DNA of 20,640 nucleotides, taken from the NCBI GenBank assembly GCA_043732485.1, contig JAYTHP010000003.1:1-20640 (forward strand), read 5' to 3'. Made by a program: the position numbers and the translations under genes. The number at the start of each line of letters is the position of its first letter. Within the stretch, counting starts at the first letter, position 1. Source of the stretch: Oligoflexia bacterium. GTDB taxonomy: Bacteria > Bdellovibrionota > UBA1018. Shown here piece after piece: positions 2,886-20,640 of this stretch. Below the pieces are notes generated by a model, which searched no databases, was not told the origin of the DNA, and saw only the letters and a program-made list of their open reading frames with translations.

Positions 2886-3789
2886 GACACCGTTTCGCAA
2901 ACCTCTAAATAGAATAAATTAGGTAATTCATGTATGTCTTTCAGACATCAAAGAAGAAAGGCGCATATAATTCCCTCGACTTGCACTCTATCAGAAAAAG
3001 ACTGGAAACTGATCCAAAAAATTTTGCCTCCTGAAATTGAAACAGGCAAGGGCACGGAAGGGGGGTGACTCCACGCAGACCTTCGAAAAATTTTTTGTGG
3101 ATTGCTGTTTTGGATTCGATCAGGATGCCCATGAGATCTGGTTCCAAGGTATTTTGGCAGCCGCACCAGTCTTGGTAAATATCTAAAAAAGTGGGTAAGC
3201 GCCGGTTTTTTTGATCAACTCATGGAAGAGGCACCGCAATTGTACGATGAGACACTCGGCATAGATTGGTCTTTCCAATCGATCGATGGGTCCCTAAATC
3301 AGGCTCCCGGATGTTCTAAAAATACTGGAAAGAACCCAATAGATCGGGTCCGACCCGGAATCAAGCATATAATCTTAACTGACAAAAATGGGATACCCAT
3401 TGCGGTTAAGATCATTCCAGCAAACGAGTCCGATATGCACCAGATTGAAGAAACCCTCGAAAGTATTGGACTACCCAGGCCTAAACCAAAAGAAGTTGAG
3501 CAGCACCTCTGCGCAGACAAGGGCTTCGACTCAGCTGCCAACCGGCAGCTAGTAGAAGAGTGGGGCTACACTTCTCATATTATTAAGCGCGGGGCTCAAG
3601 TTAAACCCATTCGACGCTATAATGCCAAGCGGTGGGTTGTTGAACGTACCCATTCATGACTCAATCAATATCGCGGGATTCGAACGCTACGGATTCACCG
3701 CCCCGAAGTCTATCGGGCAATGACATTTTTAGCCTGCGCTTGCGTCATTTTAGCTAAACTATGATATTCGGGGTTTGCGAAACGAGCTC
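2886..3789 (+). mobile_element. Degenerate IS5-family insertion sequence (IS427/IS1031-like), 904 bp
   Basis: Terminal inverted repeats GACACCGTTTCGCAAACC (2886-2903) and GGTTTGCGAAACGAGCTC (3772-3789) match at 15/18. TA flanks both sides (2884-2885, 3790-3791). The element encloses a transposase pseudogene. Confidence 0.88.
2934..3764 (+). pseudogene. IS5-family DDE transposase pseudogene with three in-frame TGA stops
   Basis: Single frame: MSFRH...LSEKDWKLIQKILPP...GG*LHADLRKIFCGLLFWIRSGCP*DLVPRYFG...SIDGS...KHIILTDKNGIP...ADKGFD...KRWVVERTHS*LNQYR...FLACACVILAKL*. Internal TGA at 3066, 3132 and 3657. The ORF-track entry 3222..3659 is the middle fragment. Confidence 0.9.
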
Positions 3790-4179: not shown

Positions 4180-5001
4180 ATGAAGTCCCATCAATTTTCA
4201 CCTCAACGAGGCGTAGTCCCTTTTGTGATTTTACTTCCCATCTTACTCACTATCGCACTGCAGTCCACCCTGGAAGCTCACGCGCTCACTCCCGAAAAAG
4301 ACACGGGCAACCTCGGAGAAATTAGACAATCGATTTTGAACGTCACTCAGTTTCAAGAGATCTATGGTCAGGGATGGATTTTAATGGCAGGCCAGAACGC
4401 GCAAGACAGCGATCTCTTTCGCGAAAAACTCTGGAACGAGTCAAATATCCCTGATGCACGAGGCGTTTTTTTAAGGTCAAGCAATGAGGGTCGCCCAACA
4501 ACTGAGGGATGTTCCGAGGGTAATTTAGGGATCGGCAGTTATCGAGCCGATCAATTTGGTAGCTATAATCACCCAGGAACTTCCCACGCGGGAAACGCCA
4601 AATTTTACCGCACCGTTGACTCCCACAATAAGCCCCACGAAGACCGTGAGCGCAACCCTTACGAATCACGAGACAATCACCAGACGGGGTGGGATAATTC
4701 GACCCGAAGTTTCTATATTGACCGCAACGACAGCGCCTGGACTAATGCCAATCACACTCATGACCTGGCAATCGAAAAATCGGGCGGCACCGAAACCCAA
4801 CCAAGAAACATCACGGTCAATACCTTCATCAAAGTCAACCGGACGCCAGAGAGCCAACAAACAGACCATATTCTCAGCTCTTTAACGAACCTCCCTGGGC
4901 AAATTGCAAAAAATGAAGCCTTGCATCAAACCCTTCAGGCTCTCATTCAGATTGAAGTTTTCAGAGCACTAGCGGCGTTCCAAGCTCCAGCGCAACCGTA
5001 A
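4180..5001 (+). CDS. Exported protein with a phage tail-collar / tail-fibre-tip-like domain
   Basis: SD AGGAG upstream. Signal peptide MKSHQ...VILLPILLTIALQSTLEAHA. Collar-like motifs 'LGEIR...GWILMAGQ...LF...NIPDARGVFLR', 'GSYRADQFGSYNH', 'NHTHDL', 'GGTETQPRNITVNTFIKV'. About 50 extra C-terminal residues look helical. Confidence 0.75.
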   Translation: MKSHQFSPQRGVVPFVILLPILLTIALQSTLEAHALTPEKDTGNLGEIRQSILNVTQFQEIYGQGWILMAGQNAQDSDLFREKLWNESNIPDARGVFLRSSNEGRPTTEGCSEGNLGIGSYRADQFGSYNHPGTSHAGNAKFYRTVDSHNKPHEDRERNPYESRDNHQTGWDNSTRSFYIDRNDSAWTNANHTHDLAIEKSGGTETQPRNITVNTFIKVNRTPESQQTDHILSSLTNLPGQIAKNEALHQTLQALIQIEVFRALAAFQAPAQP

Positions 5002-5071
5002 ACGGCGTTTTTTTTAGAGTGGTGAGTGGTGAGTTGATTGACAGATCATTTTTTGGCAAGGAGTGGAAGCA

Positions 5072-6394
5072 ATGAAATCTATCGGGTCAAAACTTATAGG
5101 TTCATTTTTGCTAACCAGCACTTCGAAAAAAGTAATTTGTCTCACTCTCCTGCTGGGCATGGTTATTTTTTTTGGCTGCTATGACAGCTCTGCCGCTTCT
5201 CTTGTCGATTGTAAGGAAGTTCTTCCCGAAAGTTTACCCAATTTTCCGGTAGAAAACGAGCCCAGCGCGTATCGCTCCAAAGTGACCACCTACCCCGTCG
5301 TGTCTGAGCTTAATTGTCAGAAAACCCCTGACGGCAACCTGAGTTCGTGTCTGTATCCGACTATTGAGTTAAAAAACGAGTGGGGGACTTTTCCTGCTGT
5401 ACCGTTTGAAACAGTTGTCAAAGTCAAAGTCTCTCGCGCCTGCAGACTGAGCCAGCCCTTCTCCACTCTGCAAATCAGGCTCGGCAAACCCTTCGCAGCC
5501 TCCCCTGCGGACGACTCTGCAGCAGCACGTTACAATAACTCAGATTTCTTAGGTTTTCAGGATCTCAACATCGACCACAATCGAAAAATCACCTTAACTC
5601 AGACGAATCACGCCCCTTTGGGCAGCTTAAAAATTTCACCTCTGGCGCCCAAGATCTTCTTAGACTCCCTCTTTCCAAGGGGTTGTGAAATTTTCCTTAC
5701 CCTCGAGATGAATCGCATCGCTTTGAGGACTCAACAGGAAGCACGCCAGCATCTCACCCAACTCAGCACACAAGCCCAGCTGATGGCTGCGACCCTAAAA
5801 GGATTGCAAGCGCTGCCGCAAGAAATGCCTAGCCTGGCTCAAAATCTTCTTGCGCTGTTTCAGCGCAATCAAGAAAACCTCAGCAACTTCCAATTGAAGT
5901 GGGAACCTCTGAGAAAACTACTTCCCGAGCTCAATCGGCAACTTGAACACGAGAAGGAGAACATTTTCAGTTTGCGCGAACTGACGCTAGTAATCAATAC
6001 CTTTACCGATTTTCTAGACGGGATTTTAGGCCTCAAAGACGTCAGTACCGGAGCAGATCTCGAGGACAGCATTAAAAAACTGATGCCCGGGACACCTAAC
6101 CCCCTCCAGCGCTTCGTCGACCTACTTGACAAGGAATACCTAACTCAGCTGGAAAAAAGGGTGCAAGAAGCGCAACACCAGGTTAGGGTTGCGCAACAGG
6201 CACTGGACTCGAACTTTTCTGATAAGCAGGTGGTTTCGCGCCTCCTAGAAGAGCTCAGGGATCAGCTCATTCTACAGATCTCCGGTCCGCACGGGATGAT
6301 AGACCAATTTGTCCATGGTCTTTATCAAAATGGAAAAAAAAGACACGCTAACCTGGTGGGAGCAACCATCATCGGAGTGCAAAATCATGCTTGA
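5072..6394 (+). CDS. Exported (possibly lipoprotein) hypothetical protein: Cys-containing N-terminal domain plus long coiled coil (about 440 aa)
   Basis: SD AAGGAG at 5058-5063 favours ATG 5072 over GTG 5063. Hydrophobic segment 'KKVICLTLLLGMVIFFGC' has an imperfect lipobox. The C-terminal half is Q/L/E-rich and amphipathic. Confidence 0.8.
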   Translation: MKSIGSKLIGSFLLTSTSKKVICLTLLLGMVIFFGCYDSSAASLVDCKEVLPESLPNFPVENEPSAYRSKVTTYPVVSELNCQKTPDGNLSSCLYPTIELKNEWGTFPAVPFETVVKVKVSRACRLSQPFSTLQIRLGKPFAASPADDSAAARYNNSDFLGFQDLNIDHNRKITLTQTNHAPLGSLKISPLAPKIFLDSLFPRGCEIFLTLEMNRIALRTQQEARQHLTQLSTQAQLMAATLKGLQALPQEMPSLAQNLLALFQRNQENLSNFQLKWEPLRKLLPELNRQLEHEKENIFSLRELTLVINTFTDFLDGILGLKDVSTGADLEDSIKKLMPGTPNPLQRFVDLLDKEYLTQLEKRVQEAQHQVRVAQQALDSNFSDKQVVSRLLEELRDQLILQISGPHGMIDQFVHGLYQNGKKRHANLVGATIIGVQNHA

Positions 6395-7769
6395 AGGCCT
6401 CAAAAATAGACAAAAATGGGTTGGATTCTCAGTCAAGGCAAGTCTCCTTTGGCTCGTAGGGATATTTTTTTGTGCAACTGAATTGCAAGCTTTGACCTAT
6501 CAACAATACCTGAACGAAAGGGATAATTGGAAGACTTTAGCTCAGAATAACAAGTCCTCAAAAGAACTTGCACTCAAACGCGCGAGGCAGAGCGTCGATC
6601 AGAAAAAAGCTCATCGCGACCAGCTTATCGAAGTTAAGAAAGCTCTCCTGACACTCGGGCACAGTCGACTGACCGACTCCCAGCACGCCAAGATGGAGGG
6701 GTTAAACGATGAAATCAAAAACATCAAGGAGAGCAACTTTCAGGGCAGCACAATCAATCTCAAATACACCAAAAACCAACAGTCTTATGTAAAAGACTAT
6801 ACTAGTCTCCTTGACCATTTCCAACACTATCACGGCTCGGAAACAACCGAGAAGAAGAAGCTGCAAGATGAGGTAACCCTATCCTTGGGGGCAAAAAACA
6901 CTAGCGACCTCGCCCTTGCACAAGCTCGACTGATCGGGCTCCGCAAAGAGGAAAGCGCCGATCAAACCCTACTTGAAGCACAGGCAGGAATTCTTGTAGC
7001 AAAAATGAAAAACACTTTTACTGAGTACGAAGAGCAACTCACACCTTGGCAAACGTTTCTCACGCATTATCAAATATCAAAAATTGATCCCCCAGCGGCC
7101 TATCTGACTCAGCTCCAGCATATCCAAAATTATGCCCACCAAAGGGGGGAATATTTTGCGCACACCGTGGCAACTCAGCTCCCCAAAATTGAGAAGCAAT
7201 TGAATGACTGCCTTCACACAGCTATCAACACGGATCAGCAATCCGGGGAGAAAAAGCGCCTCGATACCGCCCTGTCCGTTGGGTTTCTTGATACAATCGG
7301 GGCACTGCTCAAAGAGGAAATGCAAATCAGGAAGGATCCGGAAAATCAATCCGCTTTTGGCTGCGGAAACAAATTAAAGCCCACTTATGACTTTTTTCAG
7401 AGAGTGCTAGTTTATCAAGAGCAATGCCAGGACGTGAGGGCCCTGAAGCAGGCAGGATCGCCCTACGCTTTGGGATGCCTTTTATTTAAACCGGTCCTGC
7501 AAGGCGCCAAGGGGTTCTTCAAATCAGGGGCTTGGGGCAATATTGGATTCACACTCATTCCCGCCGAGTTTTGCGGACCCAAAGCACTTTCTCCCCTCGG
7601 GCAGAGAATCAACGCCATCAAACAGCTGCGCGTCAAAGAAAATGACATGCCCAACGCAATTTTGCTGGAAGCCATTCAACTTCATGATGAGTTGCTCACT
7701 CAGTGGGCAACTCTTGCTGCGGCTCCCCCGATCAGCCCCGACGTTGCCCCAACCGGGGAGGGGCAATAG
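6387..7769 (+). CDS. Exported hypothetical coiled-coil protein with a Cys-containing C-terminal domain (about 460 aa)
   Basis: ATG 6387 follows GGAG and overlaps the upstream stop by 8 nt (ATGCTTGA). This start gives the signal peptide MLEGLKNRQKWVGFSVKASLLWLVGIFFCATELQA. The body is K/Q/E/L-rich, with five Cys in the last third. Confidence 0.8.
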   Translation: MLEGLKNRQKWVGFSVKASLLWLVGIFFCATELQALTYQQYLNERDNWKTLAQNNKSSKELALKRARQSVDQKKAHRDQLIEVKKALLTLGHSRLTDSQHAKMEGLNDEIKNIKESNFQGSTINLKYTKNQQSYVKDYTSLLDHFQHYHGSETTEKKKLQDEVTLSLGAKNTSDLALAQARLIGLRKEESADQTLLEAQAGILVAKMKNTFTEYEEQLTPWQTFLTHYQISKIDPPAAYLTQLQHIQNYAHQRGEYFAHTVATQLPKIEKQLNDCLHTAINTDQQSGEKKRLDTALSVGFLDTIGALLKEEMQIRKDPENQSAFGCGNKLKPTYDFFQRVLVYQEQCQDVRALKQAGSPYALGCLLFKPVLQGAKGFFKSGAWGNIGFTLIPAEFCGPKALSPLGQRINAIKQLRVKENDMPNAILLEAIQLHDELLTQWATLAAAPPISPDVAPTGEGQ

Positions 7770-7771
7770 AA

Positions 7772-10120
7772 ATGATACGCCAGCGATCGCCGTTAGGAAG
7801 CCGTTTACGTTTGCTCTACGCCGTAGCTGGGATATTGCTTGTCGGGGTTAACCCGAGCGCTGAGGGCAGTCCGTGTCCAGGAAAATCTTGCTTTGAATTG
7901 CAGGCAGATGGAAACAAAACCAAATCAGGATCTTGGAGAAATCAGTCAGCGGGGGATATTAGGACCTACTACAAGAATCTCAAACATCCAGAATATTATC
8001 TCCTGGTCAACAGTCAAAAAGTTCAGCTCGAGGGTTACGAATTTGAGCAACCCGTTTGGACGTTGCTAGCTTTTCCAGCAATGAACTTATTTGATGAAGG
8101 ATCGAATTCAATTGCCATTCACTTTGTGGGTGAAAACTTAATTGGCCTCTTGTTGACTTTAAAATACTGGAATGCACAGGGTGGATCACCCCTGCCTATT
8201 TGTTCCGCCCGATTGAACCATGACACGGTGAACACGGTTAACTGCCAGGTAACGATCTCTTTAAAGCAGCTCGATCCAAGCATTGCAGCCCGCATTGAGG
8301 ACCTAAAGCGGGAGATTGCAGAATATAAGGTCCAAGCAAACGACCGTAGTAACCCTGAAGAACAGGCAGCCCACGCACTGGAGAAGGAATTCGAACAGGA
8401 GTGTGCAGAGATCCAACTCAAACTAGACCTTTTGAATCAGGAATTACAAAAAATCAATTTTGACGACTTTGATTCTATGACCTCCGAGCAAATGGCGAAC
8501 CTGTTTGCGGCAGATCAAAACCTAGCTGAGCTTTATCAGCAACTCAACCATGCCGTTGTACAGACGAGGGAGCGCTTGCAGTCGGCTGTGCAATCGAATC
8601 AGCAGGAGGTGACCCAGCGCGGGGATGAGATTAAAGCAAGTTTCGGGAATTTAGAGATCCCAGCCTCCTCTTTTACTTTTGCAGGGGAGGTAGAGCCGCT
8701 TTTTACTGCAGGCGATCCAGGGAATGTGACCAACGCTAGCGACGGGCTCTCTGCTGCTTCTGCTGCGACGACGACTCTAGATTACTTTGACAATGAAACT
8801 GAGCACACCGTTCAGCGACTCGATGCTGCTTTAAAAGAGGGAGAGCGGGGTCGGTTTTTGACGATTTTTTCCCATTGGAAACTCTTGCAGGATCTCACGC
8901 TTCAGAATTTAGAAAAAAGCCGGGTGAGTGGAGCATCCCTGGCGCGCATCAAAAAAGCACAAAAAAGAGTGATCGAGCATGTAGATAGCCTGGTGGATAC
9001 TTACGGCTTCTTTCGCGCAGTGAAGATGGGAGAGCAAACCAAGCGCATCGCCGGCCAAAAGCTTAAGTCTTGGAACGAACGACTCAGTCGGGAGCTTCTC
9101 GAGGAACTGAACGGCTGGCAGGATCAGCTCTCGCCCGCACAAGAAAAAATTGTGCAGGCCATTGACAGCCTGGGTCCCTTGCTCTCAAAAATGCAAGAAC
9201 CCAACTTTCTCAGCCCTGAGGAGGGAAAAACCCTTCCCCAGCAAGCAGCCAAGGAGCTGAGCCAAGATATCCTCAAGCACGGAGTGGAATCGCTCATTCA
9301 GGCCGCCCATGAGGCAACCGAACCAGCGGCGCCCCAGACTCCGGCTGAGCCCCCGGTTGACGCTGAGATTGCTAACAACAGCACCGATACTGCTGAAGCC
9401 AGCACACAAAGCAGCGACTACACCAGCCCCTTCGGAGAGCTGCTCGCACAGGTTCAATCAGCGGTGCACACCGCTCAAGTCTTGGCGGATCTTGCCCTAG
9501 GTATCTTGCCTTTCACCGCTGGGGCTAAGGATCTGTACCAAGCCTACACGGGCGTCAATCCGATCACAGGCGAAGCCCTGAGCTTTAACGAGCGCTTGTT
9601 TTCCACGGTGACCGGAATCCTCCCCTTAGAAGCCGGAGGATTAGCAAAGATCCTATGCAAAGGACCGCTCAAGATCCTCGAGAAATTTGGCAAGGCGGAC
9701 AAGCAAGCTTCGGCCGTAGGGCAGAGCTATCGCACTGAGGAGATCGTTCAGGGGGTTGAGAAGTTTGCTGATTCTGCGGTGGGTGCAGCTAAAAATCAAG
9801 CAGCATTTGCGAGATATGTTAGAGACTTAAGGGAAGCAATGCAGCGTCCTCATGTCCAAGACCCCCATTTAGCGGACATGATGAGACAGCAATATCGACC
9901 CGGTGCAGTCATTGGAAGTTGTAGCACGGCCGCAGCTATAAGGTACGAGAGAAAGACAGGTGAACTTCTAGGCGGACGAAGTCACATTCAAAAAGGTGAG
10001 AATGATGCAGTTTTCTTAAGACACTGGATACAACAAAAACCGACTGCGACTCCAGGGGATAGAGCTGCTGCCGAAAATGTATTAAAAGACCTCCAAGATG
10101 CCCTTCAAGGACCAGCATGA
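7772..10120 (+). CDS. Polymorphic toxin: signal peptide, N-terminal domain, coiled coil, pre-toxin TG motif, C-terminal putative tRNase-type domain (about 782 aa)
   Basis: ATG 7772 lies 2 nt after the upstream stop, with GGAGGGG upstream. Signal peptide MIRQRSPLGSRLRLLYAVAGILLVGVNPSAEG. PT-TG-like 'DLALGILPFTAGAKDLYQAYTGVNPITGEALSFNER' at about 9488-9600. C-terminus 'YRPGAVIGSCSTAAAIRYERKTGELLGGRSHIQKG...PGDRAAAENVLKDLQDAL'. An overlapping small gene follows. Confidence 0.85.
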   Translation: MIRQRSPLGSRLRLLYAVAGILLVGVNPSAEGSPCPGKSCFELQADGNKTKSGSWRNQSAGDIRTYYKNLKHPEYYLLVNSQKVQLEGYEFEQPVWTLLAFPAMNLFDEGSNSIAIHFVGENLIGLLLTLKYWNAQGGSPLPICSARLNHDTVNTVNCQVTISLKQLDPSIAARIEDLKREIAEYKVQANDRSNPEEQAAHALEKEFEQECAEIQLKLDLLNQELQKINFDDFDSMTSEQMANLFAADQNLAELYQQLNHAVVQTRERLQSAVQSNQQEVTQRGDEIKASFGNLEIPASSFTFAGEVEPLFTAGDPGNVTNASDGLSAASAATTTLDYFDNETEHTVQRLDAALKEGERGRFLTIFSHWKLLQDLTLQNLEKSRVSGASLARIKKAQKRVIEHVDSLVDTYGFFRAVKMGEQTKRIAGQKLKSWNERLSRELLEELNGWQDQLSPAQEKIVQAIDSLGPLLSKMQEPNFLSPEEGKTLPQQAAKELSQDILKHGVESLIQAAHEATEPAAPQTPAEPPVDAEIANNSTDTAEASTQSSDYTSPFGELLAQVQSAVHTAQVLADLALGILPFTAGAKDLYQAYTGVNPITGEALSFNERLFSTVTGILPLEAGGLAKILCKGPLKILEKFGKADKQASAVGQSYRTEEIVQGVEKFADSAVGAAKNQAAFARYVRDLREAMQRPHVQDPHLADMMRQQYRPGAVIGSCSTAAAIRYERKTGELLGGRSHIQKGENDAVFLRHWIQQKPTATPGDRAAAENVLKDLQDALQGPA

Positions 10121-10761
10121 GAGTAGACGTAAATAATTTTATTATTTTTTTACTGGGACTTGATCCTGACTTTGAAAGAGATTGCGAAAGATACCTCAAC
10201 TTTACCGAAGGACAGGAGACAGTTCACGGTATTGCTAGCACATTTTCCGATTTTATTGGAAAGAAACTAAGAGATAATAGATACAGTAAGGCGCAGGCTG
10301 TATTTAACGGAATAGAAACTTTGCTAGCTGAAAGCAAGGGAGACGAAAACATAAAGAATGCCCTCTGTACCTGTTTTTTAGAAAACCTCCTTAATAGATT
10401 TACAGAAGAACCTGCAGTCCTTGATAAATTTATTCCTCTGCTTGGACCTAAAAGTATAAAACACTCTAAGGCATGGGATGAATTTACAGGGGTGCAAACC
10501 CATGGGCTATGGGGAAATGAGCCATTTAAAATAAAAAATCAAGTAAATTTAGGCGACGATGAGGCCCTTAGAATCATCGTTGCCATTCGGCAACAGGACA
10601 ATTCCACTGCGACGGAGGAGGAAGACAGACTAAGAATTCTTCAACAGGCTTTCCCCGGCGTTTTAAATCTAATTTTTTACGATAAAAGAAAGTTGACTCC
10701 TGAACAGGTTTTGGCGGAAGCCAAAAAAATCATTAAAGATAACCATTACCGGGACCGATAG
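10117..10761 (+). CDS. Cognate immunity protein, probably two fused immunity domains
   Basis: ATGA overlap with the toxin stop, no signal peptide, AT-rich (two 60-nt lines counted at 35-38% GC). Domain 1 'IETLL...GDENIKNALCTCFLENL...LLGPKS...AWDEFTG...GLW'. Domain 2 resembles colicin/pyocin DNase immunity proteins ('TEEEDRLRIL...PGVLNLIFY...LTPEQVLAEAK'). Confidence 0.8.
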   Translation: MRVDVNNFIIFLLGLDPDFERDCERYLNFTEGQETVHGIASTFSDFIGKKLRDNRYSKAQAVFNGIETLLAESKGDENIKNALCTCFLENLLNRFTEEPAVLDKFIPLLGPKSIKHSKAWDEFTGVQTHGLWGNEPFKIKNQVNLGDDEALRIIVAIRQQDNSTATEEEDRLRILQQAFPGVLNLIFYDKRKLTPEQVLAEAKKIIKDNHYRDR

Positions 10762-11073: not shown

Positions 11074-12217
11074 TTATTTTTTTACAAAAATTGCTCCTTC
11101 GGTTTTTTCATGGGTGTCTTTAGCAAGGTTAGCTATCGCCTGAGTAAGGCCTGGCTTAACTTGCTCGGGCTTGTTAATCCAGACCTCGGTAGGAACTTCT
11201 CTTGGCTTCGGAAACCGCCCGAAGCGCTCTGGATTCCTCTGGTAGGCTTCAGCCAGGGATTTTTTTCTCATCTTGGCAAGCTCCTGGTGTAAGCCATGAT
11301 GAATCTGGGACGGCGTATAGTCAGCCAGGCTGGAGTGCCAGTGCTCGGTATTGTACCAGGTGATTAGCCTATTACAAACTCGGCGCGCGTCTCCCAGACT
11401 CGCGAATCGTTCAGGAAAGTGCGGCGAGTATTTCAAAGTCTTAAACTGGGCCTCGGAGAAGGGGTTGTCATCGCTGACGGAGAGCCGAGAGAAGCTCTTG
11501 TCGATGCTGAGGTCAGAGTAAAGCATGCTGAGCGTCTTGGATTTCGCCGCCGCGCCGCGATCGCTGTGTATCGTGAGCTGTCCTGGGAGAATTTTTTGCT
11601 GCTGGTACGCCGATTCGACTAGCTCCCGCGCGAGCACAGCAGACTCACTGTTTGCAACCATGTAACCAACCACGTATCGACTAAAAATATCAATAATAGC
11701 ATAAAGACAGAAGTAAAACCACTCCTCATGCGTCAGCAGCTTGGTGATGTCCCAACTCCAAACCTGATTCTCCTGCGTGGCCAAGAGCTCTGGCTTCTGG
11801 TAAGACGCCCTGCGCGCGATGTTTCTCCACTCCCTCAGCTCGTCCCGCTCCTCGAGAATTCGGTAGATGGTTCTTACCGAGCAGAGGTAAATCCCGTCGT
11901 CCAGTAACGCCGCGACAATGGCCGCCGGCGACCAGTCAAAAAACCGCGGCGAGTGCAAAATGTCAACCACCTTTTCCCTCTCATCGCTTGTGAGGGCGCG
12001 ATGAGAGGGACCACGCTTCGCCTTAGCTCCTACGGCTTGCGCTTTTGTCGATGCATAGTAGCTCGATCGGCTTACCTCAAGGCTTTCGCACGCCAACTGA
12101 GCCGGAACCCCTTGTGCTGTCAGCGTCTTGACCGCCTCCACAAGCCTAGCCAACGACCCAGGCTCTTTCTCTAGTCCTGCTTGTGTTTGATCTGCAGAAT
12201 TTCTGAAATTTTTTTTT
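11074..12217 (-). CDS. IS3-like transposase OrfB (rve/DDE core), probably expressed as an OrfAB fusion by -1 frameshift
   Basis: 'PELLATQENQVWSWDITKL', 'IDIFSRYVVG', 'HSDRG', 'DDNPFSEAQFKTLKY'. The frame stays open upstream of TTG 12153 back to the A9 run (KNFRNSADQTQAGLEKEPGSL), which is -1 relative to OrfA. Confidence 0.9.
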
Positions 12218-12587
12218 GAACCTCGATGATTTTTTGCGCCTGGCTATACTTCAGCTCTAACGCGCTATACTTTCGCTTGAAGATTCGCAGCTCCTCCTCG
12301 AGCTCACTCTCCTTTGGGCGAGGCCCACGTTGTATCTTGCTGTTTCTTATCAGTTTTCCCTGCTCACGCTCTTTTCTCCAGAGACTCAGGTGGGAGGCGT
12401 AAAGCCCCTCCTTCCGCAGCAACTCTCCTAGCGATCCGTTAGCCTTTTGACAACGGTCCGCCGCGGACAAGATCTCGAGCTTGTAATTAACCGTGAGGTT
12501 TCTCCGCTTCCTCTTGGCTTGACCCGGTATCACCTCCGGATTTGGTACCCTATTAGTCGTGGCTTCATCTTGCTTTATCTCGTCCAT
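12171..12587 (-). CDS. IS3-like transposase OrfA (HTH plus coiled coil)
   Basis: SD GGGGGAG. 'RRNLTVNYKLEILSAADRC...LGELLRKEGLYASHLSLWRK...IIEVQKKISEIL'. A9 slippery run near the 3' end. Confidence 0.9.
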   Translation of the reverse strand: MDEIKQDEATTNRVPNPEVIPGQAKRKRRNLTVNYKLEILSAADRCQKANGSLGELLRKEGLYASHLSLWRKEREQGKLIRNSKIQRGPRPKESELEEELRIFKRKYSALELKYSQAQKIIEVQKKISEILQIKHKQD

Positions 12588-17397: not shown

Positions 17398-17717
17398 AGG
17401 AAAGCGCCAGGGGAGGGGTGCCGTCAGCCGGAATACTACACCGGACTACTACGATGATGCTCTAAATTTTAATTATAATAAATTTTAATTTTTTTTAACT
17501 TTCTATTCCTCAAGCAATAAAATAAAATAGTACTGAAAGCTTCACGCGCGCTGTCTCCCGAAGTGCGATCCTATCGCCCATGGCAAGAGAAGCGTTTCCA
17601 CCTTTGCTTCGTCTCCAGTCTATCGGTCGATGGTCTGTCTCGTGAACACGGATGGCGACTCTCAAGGCAAACGCGAAATACGAAAAAAATTACCAAAAAG
17701 AGGTTAAAGAAAATTTT

Positions 17718-20640
17718 GTGAGCATCCAATCCTATCCAGCCGTCAAAAACCCCACCGGAGTAGCTGCTTTTTCTGTCAGTAACCCTCACCTGATGATCGT
17801 GATTTGCCTGTTAATCGTCTTGCTGGGCTCCATTGGCATTACCAGGATGCCCAAAGACTTGCTCCCGGCTTCCAATCAGCCGGCGGTGCAGATTCTCTCG
17901 ATTTATCCTGGCATGGCCACCCAAAACGTCGAGACTGATTTAACCTGGAAATTTGAGCGCTATACCGGCCAAGCAGTTGGGCTCACGCACCAAGAATCGC
18001 GCTCGATGCCTGGCATTAGCGTGGTGCGCAACTTTTTTGACCCCCACGCGGCTGATCAAAACTCGGCCATGTCTCAGACCACCGCCCTGATCATGTCGGT
18101 TTTAAGACGGCTGCCGCCTGGCGCCCAGCCACCCATCGTGCTCCCTTTTGATCCGATGGCCAACGTGCCCTTAGCCTTAGTCGCCGTTACCGGCGATTTC
18201 CCACCTAATATTCTCTATGATTACGCGCAGTACGATGTTCGGCGGGAGGTCCAGTCGCATCCGGGTGCCATTGCTCCGACCGTCATGGGTGGCGCAGAAA
18301 AGCAGATTATTATTGATCTAGACCCCAAAAAACTGCGGCAATTTAACCTATCCCCCCTGGAAGTAATCAATAAACTCTCTCATCTCAATACTTTCATCCC
18401 CACAGGCGACATGAAGATCGGGCAGTTTGATTATCAAGTCTTGAGCAATGGTCTTGCAGCCACGGTCAAAGACTTAGATCAATTCCCGGTACGGACGCAA
18501 GAAGGGGTAGAGATCCTGCTCCATCAAGTGGGGCAAGCCAAAGAAGGCAACATCATTCAAACCAATGTTGTGACCATTGACGGCAAAGAACAAGTGTATG
18601 TGCCTATTTTTAGGCAACAAGGGGCGAACTCGCTGGGCGTGGTCGACACGGTCAGGGAGGGGATCAAAGCTTTAGAAAAAACCATCCACGGCTTGAAGCT
18701 GTCGCTCGTGGGTGATCAAACAGTTTACATCAAGCGGGCGATTGCCAGCATCGCCGAGGAAGCCTTGATCGGCGGCGGACTGGCAGCCTTGATGGTCTTT
18801 TTGTTCCTTGGAAACCCGCGCGCCACCTTTGCCACCCTCTTGTCCTTGCCCTTATCGACCTTCTTTGTCGGTATGGGACTGAAGGCCGCCGGACAAACGA
18901 TTAATGTCATGACCCTGGGAGGCATCGCCTTAGCTATTGGCCTGCTGGTCGATAACTCGATTGTGGCCATCGAAAACATCATGAGACACCTGCAGGCTTG
19001 TCGCAGTCAAAACAGGGAAGACCGGATTCGAACGGTGATTATAGCCGCTCAAGAAGTGACCCTACCGATCCTAGCCTCTACCCTCTGTAACCTGATTGTG
19101 CTCTCGCCAGTGATTCTCTTAGGCGGAGTGGTGCAGATTCTCTTTGCAGCCGTCGCGAAAACCGTGATGTTTGCTATTTTAGGCTCCCTGATTGCTGAAA
19201 CTGCGGTCATTCCGCTGTTTGCCTCGCACTTTTTAACCGGACCGATCCCGGAATTACCGGCTTTCTTTCAAGCAATCAACCGTTTTGTACAGACGTTAAC
19301 CCAAAGCTACGGTCGAGCTTTAGCACAAGTGATCGTGCGCTTTTGGGGGGTGGTGGTCGCCCTTGTGCTGTTGCTTGCCTTAGGCCTCAGTCTGGTGAGT
19401 CACATTGGAACGGAGTTGTTCCCGAGAGCAGACTCAGGCGGGATGGTGCTAGAACTGCGTTTTGCTTCAGGCCTCCGGATTGAAGAGACCGTCAAGCGAG
19501 TCGGCGAAATTGAAAAAAAAATTCGCGAATGGATCCCCAAAGAAGAGCTGCACAGTGTGATTGCCAATATCGGTGTTTATAACGGTTTTCCTGCGGCTTT
19601 TACCACCAATGCCGGGACGCAAGATGCCTTTTTACTGATTGAGCTCACGGAAGAGCGGATACAATCCTCGCAGGCCTATGCGCGCATTTTACGCGAGCAG
19701 ATCCCCCGCTTTTACCCGGACGTTGAGATAGGCATTCAATTAGGCGGTTTACTCAGCTCGGCGCTAAATGCTGGACTTAAGGCGCCCATTGACATTCAGT
19801 TCTCAGGCCCCAAGATTGAAGTCTCCTACGGCATGGCCAAACAACTCTTAGCCCCCTTAAAAAAGATTCGCGGTGCCGTGGACGTTAGGATCCAAGAGCG
19901 GCTCGATGCCCCTGAGATTGATCTGCAAATCCATCGCACCCGCTCTGATCAGATGGGTTTAATGACCGATGAAATTGTCGAGAACATTGTGAGCGCCTTG
20001 AATGGCAGTATCGTCTTCAAGCCTGTTATCTGGATTGATCCGCGCACCGGCATTGATTATTTGCTCGGCGTGCGCTTTCCTGCCACCAGCATGCATACGC
20101 TGGAGGATCTCAAAGCCATTCCCTTAACCGGGCGCAACCAGATGCGGCAAATCCCCCTCCATGAGGTGGCGGATGTGGCGTTACACCACGCTGCCATCAC
20201 GGAGCTGAACCGGGTGGATATGAAGCGCGTGGTCAATGTCTTCATGGATGCCCAAGGGCGGGATATCGGCGGGGTGGCTGCAGACGCTGAAAAAATCATC
20301 CAAGCTGCCACTTTTCCAGACAATTACTCAGCAAGTATTCAAGGTGAGATCTCGGAAATGAGGACTGCCATTGGCCAGCTTACAGGCGGCTTTCTACTCT
20401 CGGCACTGCTGGTTTACCTCGTGCTCGTCGTGCAGTTCCGCTCCTTCATCTACCCAGCCATCATGATGGTCACCATTCCTTTAGGGATGGTGGGGATTGT
20501 CTTAATGTTTGTCTTGACTCAGACTTATTTTAGCCTGCAAGCAGCCATCGGGACGATCTTCATGGTGGGCATTGCCGTCTCCAACGGCGTGCTGTTGGTC
20601 GAGTTCATTCAACAAAAAATACACCAAGAACACCTACCGC
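17718..20640 (+). CDS. RND efflux transporter permease (AcrB/CzcA superfamily), 3'-truncated by the window edge
   Basis: Translated by hand; it is absent from the ORF track because no stop is reached. Segments read: 'FSVSNPHLMIVICLLIVLLGSIGITRMPKDLLP...YPGM...ESRSMPG', TM4 'NVMTLGGIALAIGLLVDNSIVAIENI', 'GTELFPRAD', 'MVGIAVSNGVLLVEF'. The start, TM4 and final segments were checked to be in one frame. Start is GTG 17718 or ATG 17652. Confidence 0.92.
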   Translation, partial: MSIQSYPAVKNPTGVAAFSVSNPHLMIVICLLIVLLGSIGITRMPKDLLPASNQPAVQILSIYPGMATQNVETDLTWKFERYTGQAVGLTHQESRSMPGISVVRNFFDPHAADQNSAMSQTTALIMSVLRRLPPGAQPPIVLPFDPMANVPLALVAVTGDFPPNILYDYAQYDVRREVQSHPGAIAPTVMGGAEKQIIIDLDPKKLRQFNLSPLEVINKLSHLNTFIPTGDMKIGQFDYQVLSNGLAATVKDLDQFPVRTQEGVEILLHQVGQAKEGNIIQTNVVTIDGKEQVYVPIFRQQGANSLGVVDTVREGIKALEKTIHGLKLSLVGDQTVYIKRAIASIAEEALIGGGLAALMVFLFLGNPRATFATLLSLPLSTFFVGMGLKAAGQTINVMTLGGIALAIGLLVDNSIVAIENIMRHLQACRSQNREDRIRTVIIAAQEVTLPILASTLCNLIVLSPVILLGGVVQILFAAVAKTVMFAILGSLIAETAVIPLFASHFLTGPIPELPAFFQAINRFVQTLTQSYGRALAQVIVRFWGVVVALVLLLALGLSLVSHIGTELFPRADSGGMVLELRFASGLRIEETVKRVGEIEKKIREWIPKEELHSVIANIGVYNGFPAAFTTNAGTQDAFLLIELTEERIQSSQAYARILREQIPRFYPDVEIGIQLGGLLSSALNAGLKAPIDIQFSGPKIEVSYGMAKQLLAPLKKIRGAVDVRIQERLDAPEIDLQIHRTRSDQMGLMTDEIVENIVSALNGSIVFKPVIWIDPRTGIDYLLGVRFPATSMHTLEDLKAIPLTGRNQMRQIPLHEVADVALHHAAITELNRVDMKRVVNVFMDAQGRDIGGVAADAEKIIQAATFPDNYSASIQGEISEMRTAIGQLTGGFLLSALLVYLVLVVQFRSFIYPAIMMVTIPLGMVGIVLMFVLTQTYFSLQAAIGTIFMVGIAVSNGVLLVEFIQQKIHQEHLP

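Follow-up and report, generated by a model that had tools for sequence, protein, structure and literature searches.

How toxins with the pre-toxin domain PT-TG leave Gram-negative bacteria and enter other cells is an open question. A 2026 survey resolves only a W10XG/type VII secretion system (T7SS) subset and says that in diderms such proteins have to depend on other systems or unknown ones (PMC13483458). The question is posed here by five genes at positions 4180–10761 of a contig of 20,640 nt from an Oligoflexia bacterium (genome G000, 2.58 Mb, 89% complete); the window is this entire contig, C3. The genes form a real polymorphic toxin operon that is conserved and that combines a trafficking region without a name with exported partners dedicated to it. 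By all appearances, some Gram-negative bacteria use the cluster for a kind of toxin delivery to rivals that has not been described.

The five open reading frames (ORFs) adjoin each other on the + strand and encode proteins of 273, 440, 460, 782 and 214 amino acids (aa). From gene 1 to gene 5 they are joined by a 70-nt gap, an 8-nt overlap, a 2-nt gap and a 4-nt ATGA overlap, and the last three junctions are as given in an earlier note on this DNA. GGAG-type Shine-Dalgarno sequences lie 5' of the ATGs at 4180, 5072, 6387 and 7772; the last three are starts which that note had reassigned, and homologue alignments agree with them. Genes 1–4 each have a hydrophobic stretch inside the first ~37 residues, so that hydropathy fits the Sec-type N-termini proposed earlier; gene 5 has a short hydrophobic stretch only (residues 3–15). 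The genes and their parts are:

4180..5001, + strand: gene 1, tail-collar/T4 gp12-like signal-peptide protein (alignment, PHROG families, low-confidence model)
5072..6394, + strand: gene 2, putative exported partner, Cys82/93/124/205 region followed by a helical region (from sequence)
6387..7769, + strand: gene 3, putative exported partner, predicted helical, conserved C-terminal domain with Cys347 and Cys364 (from sequence)
7772..10120, + strand: gene 4, polymorphic toxin with signal peptide, beta domain, helical stalk, PT-TG and tip (Pfam, homologues, model)
7889..8257, + strand: toxin beta-strand domain, residues 40–162 (AlphaFold2 model, alignment)
8261..9319, + strand: helical stalk, long helices 164–291 and bundle 328–516 (model, family profile)
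9482..9685, + strand: PT-TG pre-toxin domain, residues 571–638 (PF14449, E 4.7e-11)
9752..10120, + strand: exchangeable all-helical toxin tip, residues 661–782 (model, homologous tips)
10117..10761, + strand: gene 5, cytoplasmic immunity protein, DUF7674 with a C-terminal addition of ~80 aa (Pfam, tip-linked homologues)

The assembly may derive from sequencing run X1, in which a single contig covers 3755–10807 with zero differences and at the depth of the flank; three runs of a second study gave short identical pieces, too sparse for use. A Pfam search with genes 1–3 gave no match, no cluster gene has a paralogue in its own genome, and promoter and terminator scans came out close to chance level.

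Genes 4 and 5 are almost certainly a polymorphic toxin and its cognate immunity gene. The PT-TG domain and the separate tip reported earlier are present, PF14449 matching residues 571–638. P0006, the closest relative, has 39% identity over residues 10–673 and then a ParB-like tip. Among 64 stalk relatives scanned, 29 have PT-TG and six a WHH/colicin DNase, and RES, EndoU, YwqJ deaminase, Ntox10 and DUF6883 tips occur once each. P0011 and P0091 belong to one 90% cluster, yet have different tips; the 37 tip clusters counted among 67 sequences are an overcount, as some entries are truncated or frameshifted. In locus L001 a tip 77% identical to the window's follows an N-terminus of unrelated sequence, and gene 5 homologues stand behind the same tip in L001 (E 7.5e-77) and twice in L074 (E 3e-32), which has a full gene and an orphan tip–immunity cassette. 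Small genes differ downstream of different tips. Gene 5 matches DUF7674 at residues 13–119 (E 1.4e-14). GC content at third codon positions is 0.33 in the tip, 0.35 in gene 5 and 0.55 in the stalk, which is consistent with a recent swap of tip and immunity gene. The C-terminus thus varies among homologues, a point on which the earlier note had made its proposal depend, and the tip travels with its small gene.

The tip is probably a nucleic-acid attacker, in this copy an RNase. It has invariant Arg724, Glu726, His738 and Lys741, with His738-x-x-Lys741 kept in 6/6 sequences. The Ntox28 tRNase of CdiA-CT from UPEC536 is likewise a small all-helical tip with a conserved His, but its active site is Asp...His-x-x-Glu in place of His-x-x-Lys (PMC9086364). 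An atlas score of 0.84 to Ntox28 is a lead only, and searches of the tip against Pfam Ntox28 (PF15605) and PDB sequences gave no match.

Upstream of PT-TG, the conserved stalk is read as the trafficking region that defines the family. A stalk profile (residues 160–515, built from four sequences) was searched against 1.84 billion representatives at E≤0.001; the query and one of the training sequences are among the 81 proteins retrieved, most of which are 600–820 aa long. Signal-peptide-like N-termini, called by a crude h-region test, are found in 60/66 family members of at least 540 aa, as against 109/283 long ORFs of the own genome. The stalk has no match in Pfam or NCBIfam, and the family is unnamed. 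The mature toxin, modelled by AlphaFold2 on 68 sequences (mean predicted local distance difference test, pLDDT, 75.9; predicted TM-score 0.54), has a beta domain (40–162) followed by long helices (164–291), a bundle (328–516), PT-TG and a helical tip, and the pLDDT of the stalk is mostly 75–97 outside the linker. The beta domain is kept in most family members and substituted in some. Fold searches with this model in PDB and BFVD gave nothing at E≤0.001, the best row (VIA, Z 8.5) lying inside the helical background; the ESM atlas gave no usable match for residues 33–520, and homologue searches by word index had little sensitivity (2, 2 and 1 matches, self counted). Hydrophobicity is highest in the PT-TG region (median 1.38), which is left as the likely membrane-crossing element.

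Several larger proteins share parts of this architecture. P0041 (1,906 aa) and P0066 (1,259 aa) have only the bundle part of the stalk in common with the family, which suggests that the bundle is a mobile pre-toxin module of other large toxins. Stalk toxins of 1,176–1,236 aa occur without gene 1–3 homologues at L097:6018-9728 and L116:7413-10943; their extra N-terminal ~480–515 aa consist of a Cys-containing segment and then a long helical-looking one. The N-terminal extension in G160 and G152 might have been gene 2 or gene 3 in fused form, but profile comparison did not support this.

Genes 1–3 accompany the toxin in a conserved order. Among 116 genomes of the order, the own genome included, gene 1 is found in 10, gene 2 in five and gene 3 in seven; gene 2 always lies inside the operon wherever the contig permits, and gene 3 accompanies it in 5/5 genomes. 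In the phylum sample of 401 genomes, gene 3 occurs in seven and the stalk in 17 (nine at E<1e-9, seven of which were already in the alignment). G320 (L065) and the metagenome contigs L113/L114 preserve the order 1–2–3–toxin–small gene. The metagenome contigs match the gene 1–3 profiles at E 9e-55, 8.5e-42 and 2.4e-62; they were retrieved by the stalk alone and are absent from the gene 1–3 profiles, L113 stopping within the toxin. G305 and G419 have the same order, interrupted by contig ends, and G311 (L066) has an expanded version with genes 1 and 2, two copies of gene 3, two more exported genes, a toxin and a CPCC gene. The earlier note had staked its proposal on the co-occurrence of genes 1–3 with the toxin, and this co-occurrence is seen. 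The G320 toxin keeps only the long-helix segment (residues 198–284), which is thus likely the partner-binding part. A gene 3 homologue lies directly upstream at 8/15 stalk loci, one of them by a pairwise link only. These 15 loci are those at E<1e-6, with L113/L114 taken as one and L117, L121, L074 and L122 (E>1e-6) excluded, and most of them fed the profiles; the 407-aa gene of L096 was counted as gene 3-like on a pairwise E of 2e-7 alone.

Named relatives come from Oligoflexia, Archangium primigenium and a Myxococcales bacterium, from which we infer a range over Bdellovibrionota and Myxococcota; viral contigs contained no relative of P0037. A different, compact operon is found in genus g113 (L098:5981-8894, L099:5045-8356, L100:5395-8699, L123:5714-9052). 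It encodes two exported proteins (~295 aa and ~205 aa), a ~470-aa toxin with PT-TG and a 129-aa product. Its toxin tip belongs to the tip family of the window, its N-terminus and partners are unrelated, and a DNA glycosylase-like gene adjoins it. Across the phylum, many signal-peptide toxins, mostly with PT-TG, stand behind one to three tightly coupled signal-peptide genes of several unrelated families, and loci with partners, toxin and immunity gene recur (L093, L095, L102, L103, L105–L108, L125, L127, L130–L132, L135).

On sequence grounds, gene 1 is a stand-alone phage tail-collar/T4 gp12-like domain and a phage-fibre derivative, and it is presumed to be the homing subunit. Its alignment matches the receptor-binding domain of the T4 short tail fibre (1ocy) at E 1.5e-7 and PHROG tail and tail-collar families at E 1.6e-12 to 3e-5, in agreement with the tail-fibre-like subunit of the earlier note. 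T4 fibres (Z 5.1) and cyanophage fibres are also the top structural rows for a low-confidence model (pLDDT 60). Conserved collar motifs surround a variable loop (about residues 100–200) and are followed by C-terminal helices. The homology is to the C-terminal region of gp12; gene 1, in contrast, encodes a short stand-alone exported domain without the shaft. In a tree of 16 gene 1 homologues, the five that precede gene 2 are split by a 100/99 branch from eight that precede giant toxins of ~1,900 aa; three rows are unlabelled, and G311 and G320 hold both kinds. The split suggests that each lineage is tied to its own toxin class, kin genomes being non-independent. Bdellovibrio reportedly has phage-like fibres, the MAT fibres, which it uses in prey recognition.

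The second toxin class is composed of a gene 1 paralogue, a ~1,900-aa signal-peptide protein and immunity genes (L067:7207-13620, L068:6730-14197, L072:6321-11486, L073:5541-12292, L075:6155-11548, L077:2-2922, L078:998-7138, L080:6581-13200). The large proteins are mutually homologous, have weak haemagglutinin and PT-VENN matches, and vary in their tips (e.g., Ntox21). Some copies are split. No CdiB gene adjoins them, and a search of five carriers gave no ShlB match over the cut-off, its controls also remaining without a match. In this second lineage the gene 1-type fibre subunit may replace CdiB for giant haemagglutinin-like toxins.

The partner proteins are less readily classified. Gene 2 has conserved Cys82/93/124/205 in its N-terminal region, which is probably beta-rich, and a weak profile likeness to the beta-to-coil junction of the toxin (P 54%). 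When profiles of genes 2 and 3 were compared with 11 other upstream-gene or extension families, none exceeded 1% probability; single-linkage links of gene 3 to shorter partners (E about 1e-5) were rejected as coiled-coil noise because of this result. A complex prediction with gene 2 (68–420), gene 3 (48–441) and the toxin (40–291) scored 0.14 against a mark of 0.32, with controls not folded, and was counted neither for nor against. Unusual forms of gene 3 include a 916-aa paralogue with a glycine-rich, collagen-like region in the N-terminal half at L066:10711-13461, with a lipoprotein-like gene 3 copy after it. Truncated copies are present at one chromosomal site in two genomes of one genus (L070:3652-4638, L076:10667-11233), one fused to a lipoprotein-like N-terminus behind an immunity gene, and the other a fragment by transposase ORFs from which the toxin is gone.

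T2SS, the type II secretion system, is the default outer-membrane exit of Sec substrates and exports folded complexes. The own genome has a T2SS operon on contig C210 (gspC-D-E-F-G-pseudopilins-J-L-M), so that an exit route for Sec substrates exists, and the GspD N0 domain is present in 5/5 other carriers tested; Sec followed by T2SS would be the simplest export route. In total the genome has four secretins; its pilus ATPases are several, and some belong to clusters that resemble Tad or type IV pili. The earlier note had seen no known delivery machine, which stands for the locus and for target entry and falls for export. It had also found the FHA repeats of contact-dependent inhibition (CDI) and the VgrG, PAAR and Rhs proteins of type VI secretion (T6SS) missing, and in this it was right. 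Pfam searches of the locus proteins gave no TPS domain, FHA repeats or Rhs repeats, the toxin model is mostly helical, and no VgrG, PAAR or WXG100 match was found in the genome (89% complete), where controls did match. There is no CdiB gene at the locus; a CdiB/ShlB search of the genome carries no weight, because its controls gave no match.

The locus falls into the broad class of polymorphic toxins dependent on T2SS/Sec, the default class for export (PMC3482391). The class shares with the locus the signal peptide, the variable C-terminal toxin and the downstream immunity gene, but is given no neighbourhood signature, whereas here an unnamed stalk comes with three dedicated exported genes, one of them phage-fibre-derived. 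Characteristic features of LXG, CDI, T6SS, umbrella and Hbl-type systems are missing from the locus, in line with the earlier view that no described system matches. No description of the operon was found in the literature covered, which leaves aside most subscription papers and the supplements of PMC3482391; the accessible parts of PMC12419801 and PMC13689555 do not describe it. The 2026 survey lists proteins of Bdellovibrio, Archangium and Oligoflexus in a table as PF14449 only, whereas Bdellovibrio, Oligoflexia and tail fibres go unmentioned in its main text (PMC13483458).

The explanation that we favour, at a little better than even chances, is a secreted, multi-subunit, bacteriocin-like antibacterial particle exported by Sec and T2SS and carrying a phage-fibre homing subunit. 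Its assembly, export and killing would proceed as follows. The products of genes 1–4 would pass through Sec, fold in the periplasm with their conserved Cys pairs and exit by the host T2SS. The gene 2 and gene 3 products would attach to the stalk along its long helices (about residues 198–290), giving a particle shaped like a rod in which they may brace or chaperone the stalk. The gene 1 product, probably a trimer like T4 gp12, would bind a polysaccharide or protein on the surface of the rival, the stalk and the mildly hydrophobic PT-TG would carry the tip into the target cytoplasm, where nucleic acid would be attacked, and gene 5 would shield the producer as well as its kin. In function, the proposed mechanism comes closest to UmbABC of Streptomyces (PMC11062931), also a secreted multi-protein toxin with a coiled-coil stalk, adaptors and a separate variable receptor-binding subunit. 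The umbrella toxins differ in their Tat signal, ALF repeats and trypsin-lectin subunits and in being actinobacterial, in contrast to the tail-collar binder and diderm host seen here; no Tat signal was detected here, genes 1–4 have no ALF-repeat or trypsin-lectin match in Pfam or NCBIfam, and the toxin model is without a repeat ring. More tentatively, and with chances somewhat short of even, the locus would stand for a new class of T2SS-exported particles in Bdellovibrionota and Myxococcota, with targeting by a fibre tip and translocation by a helical stalk with swappable partners.

A number of observations weigh against the particle. At 7/15 stalk loci no gene 3 homologue lies upstream: three have two other signal-peptide genes, two an N-terminal extension of ~480–515 aa, one is decayed and one is a truncated orphan. 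The alternative partner pairs of the three have no profile likeness to genes 2 and 3. Genes 1–3 are therefore dedicated partners, and neither universal nor obligatory for the wider stalk family. The G311 toxin lacks a detectable stalk despite genes 1–3, many other PT-TG toxins of the phylum have no co-oriented partners, and the gene counts come from kin genomes on which the profiles were partly built. A T2SS is expected in this lineage, and its presence says nothing of substrate use. The window copy itself may be impaired, as tip residue 717 (window 9920–9922) is Cys here, also in run X1, and Gly in the conserved motif of 5/5 homologues. In the decayed locus (L115:9664-11666) a truncated gene 1 is directly followed by pieces of the stalk, part of a tip and a small gene, whereas genes 2 and 3 are absent.

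Some of these points suit a toxin that is self-sufficient, either a Sec/T2SS bacteriocin or a cell-surface toxin, with genes 1–3 as co-regulated helpers (adhesins of their own, chaperones or factors for display) that stay apart from any particle. In G160 and G152, relatives of the stalk occur without gene 1–3 homologues, partner pairs elsewhere are not detectably homologous, and gene 1 also precedes the other toxin class and TIG or RCC1 repeat proteins. Possible lipoboxes, found as Cys36 in 1/7 gene 2 rows and in 2/12 gene 3 rows, would tether the partners to the producer. The partnerless stalk proteins, however, carry ~500 aa extra, as expected if the partner function were fused, gene overlaps and order are conserved across several genera, and gene 1 lineages follow toxin class. 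We consider such a toxin unlikely, though worth keeping in mind.

An effector of predation, deployed at predator–prey contacts via Tad or type IV pilus machinery and killing prey rather than kin, seems improbable. Oligoflexia, Archangium and Myxococcales, in which relatives are found, are lineages rich in predators, and the secretins and pilus ATPases of the genome could serve such a route. The patchy range, the fast exchange of tips together with immunity, and the orphan cassettes and decayed copies (L074, L115, L076) fit conflict with kin or competitors instead; nucleases would ruin the nutrients of the prey, and predation by this host itself is an assumption.

That genes 2, 3 and the stalk form a tripartite alpha-helical pore-forming toxin of the Hbl/Nhe/XaxAB kind, serving as translocon for the tip, is quite improbable. 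Three exported helical proteins of 400–500 aa in one operon invite the comparison, and paralogous subunits would suit the fact that gene 2 weakly resembles the N-terminus of the toxin. The maximal 19-residue hydropathy past residue 50 is, however, ≤1.1 in 7/7 gene 2 rows and <1.6 in 12/12 gene 3 rows, and values >1.6 occur in only 2/65 stalks, so that genes 2 and 3 and 63/65 stalks stay below transmembrane strength. The missing hydrophobic segments argue against an Hbl/Nhe-type pore; there is no sequence match, and no ClyA, Hbl or XaxAB row is among the fold matches listed for the toxin model. The alpha-pore-forming translocon which the earlier note had offered as an analogy is weakened by this lack of hydrophobic hairpins and of a pore-forming match to the model.

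A diverged known system missed by profiles, either an LXG/Lap-like T7SS substrate or phage-derived injection cargo, is very improbable. In its favour, PT-TG is mostly an LXG/WXG feature, with small helical partners upstream (PMC13483458), and the LapA chain 8gmh_E is in the fold list at Z 8.2, but with a root-mean-square deviation of 11.9 over 86 aligned residues, inside the helical background. Against it, the proteins have signal peptides, the host is a diderm that possesses a T2SS, WXG100, VgrG and PAAR gave no match, the partners measure 440–460 aa, and there is no viral fold match at E≤0.001. LXG toxins with Lap1/Lap2 (10.1101/2023.07.21.550046) share with the locus the PT-TG before the tip and two helical partner genes upstream; they are Gram-positive substrates of T7SSb, whereas the proteins here are Sec-type, with much larger partners and no LXG/WXG match.

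The remaining parts of the window lie outside the system:

3222..3659, + strand: truncated DDE transposase, upstream flank (DDE_Tnp_1, E 9e-12)
11074..12587, − strand: element of two ORFs (138 and 359 aa) resembling an insertion sequence, downstream flank

The downstream element is presumably IS3-like, judging from its motifs. The upstream insertion-sequence remnant (2947–3737), with a short transposase ORF, has 30–60x the depth of the operon in run X1; it is also present in the runs of the second study and is therefore taken as a widespread element. Positions 89–2773 encode an 894-aa RecD2-like helicase with a long insertion between its helicase parts (Pfam gap about 551–732). In the last 3.2 kb (17400–20640) no two-ended ORF of more than 88 aa is listed, and this part is probably a long minus-strand gene that leaves the contig end.

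The locus provides a defined candidate module for the question of PT-TG toxin exit and entry in Gram-negative bacteria (PMC13483458). The module consists of a stalk family that numbers ~80 clusters, a binder derived from phage and two families of partners; its named relatives belong to lineages in which there are cultured predators. It points to a toxin–immunity arsenal in predator–predator competition, a topic that according to a 2026 Bdellovibrio review has yet to be studied (PMC13689555). If the proposed particle is true, it would be a new delivery class and a Gram-negative counterpart of the umbrella toxins, and would explain part of the diderm PT-TG proteins. Bacteria would then have another route for domesticating phage parts, namely an antibacterial that is diffusible and modular and whose homing subunit is separate.

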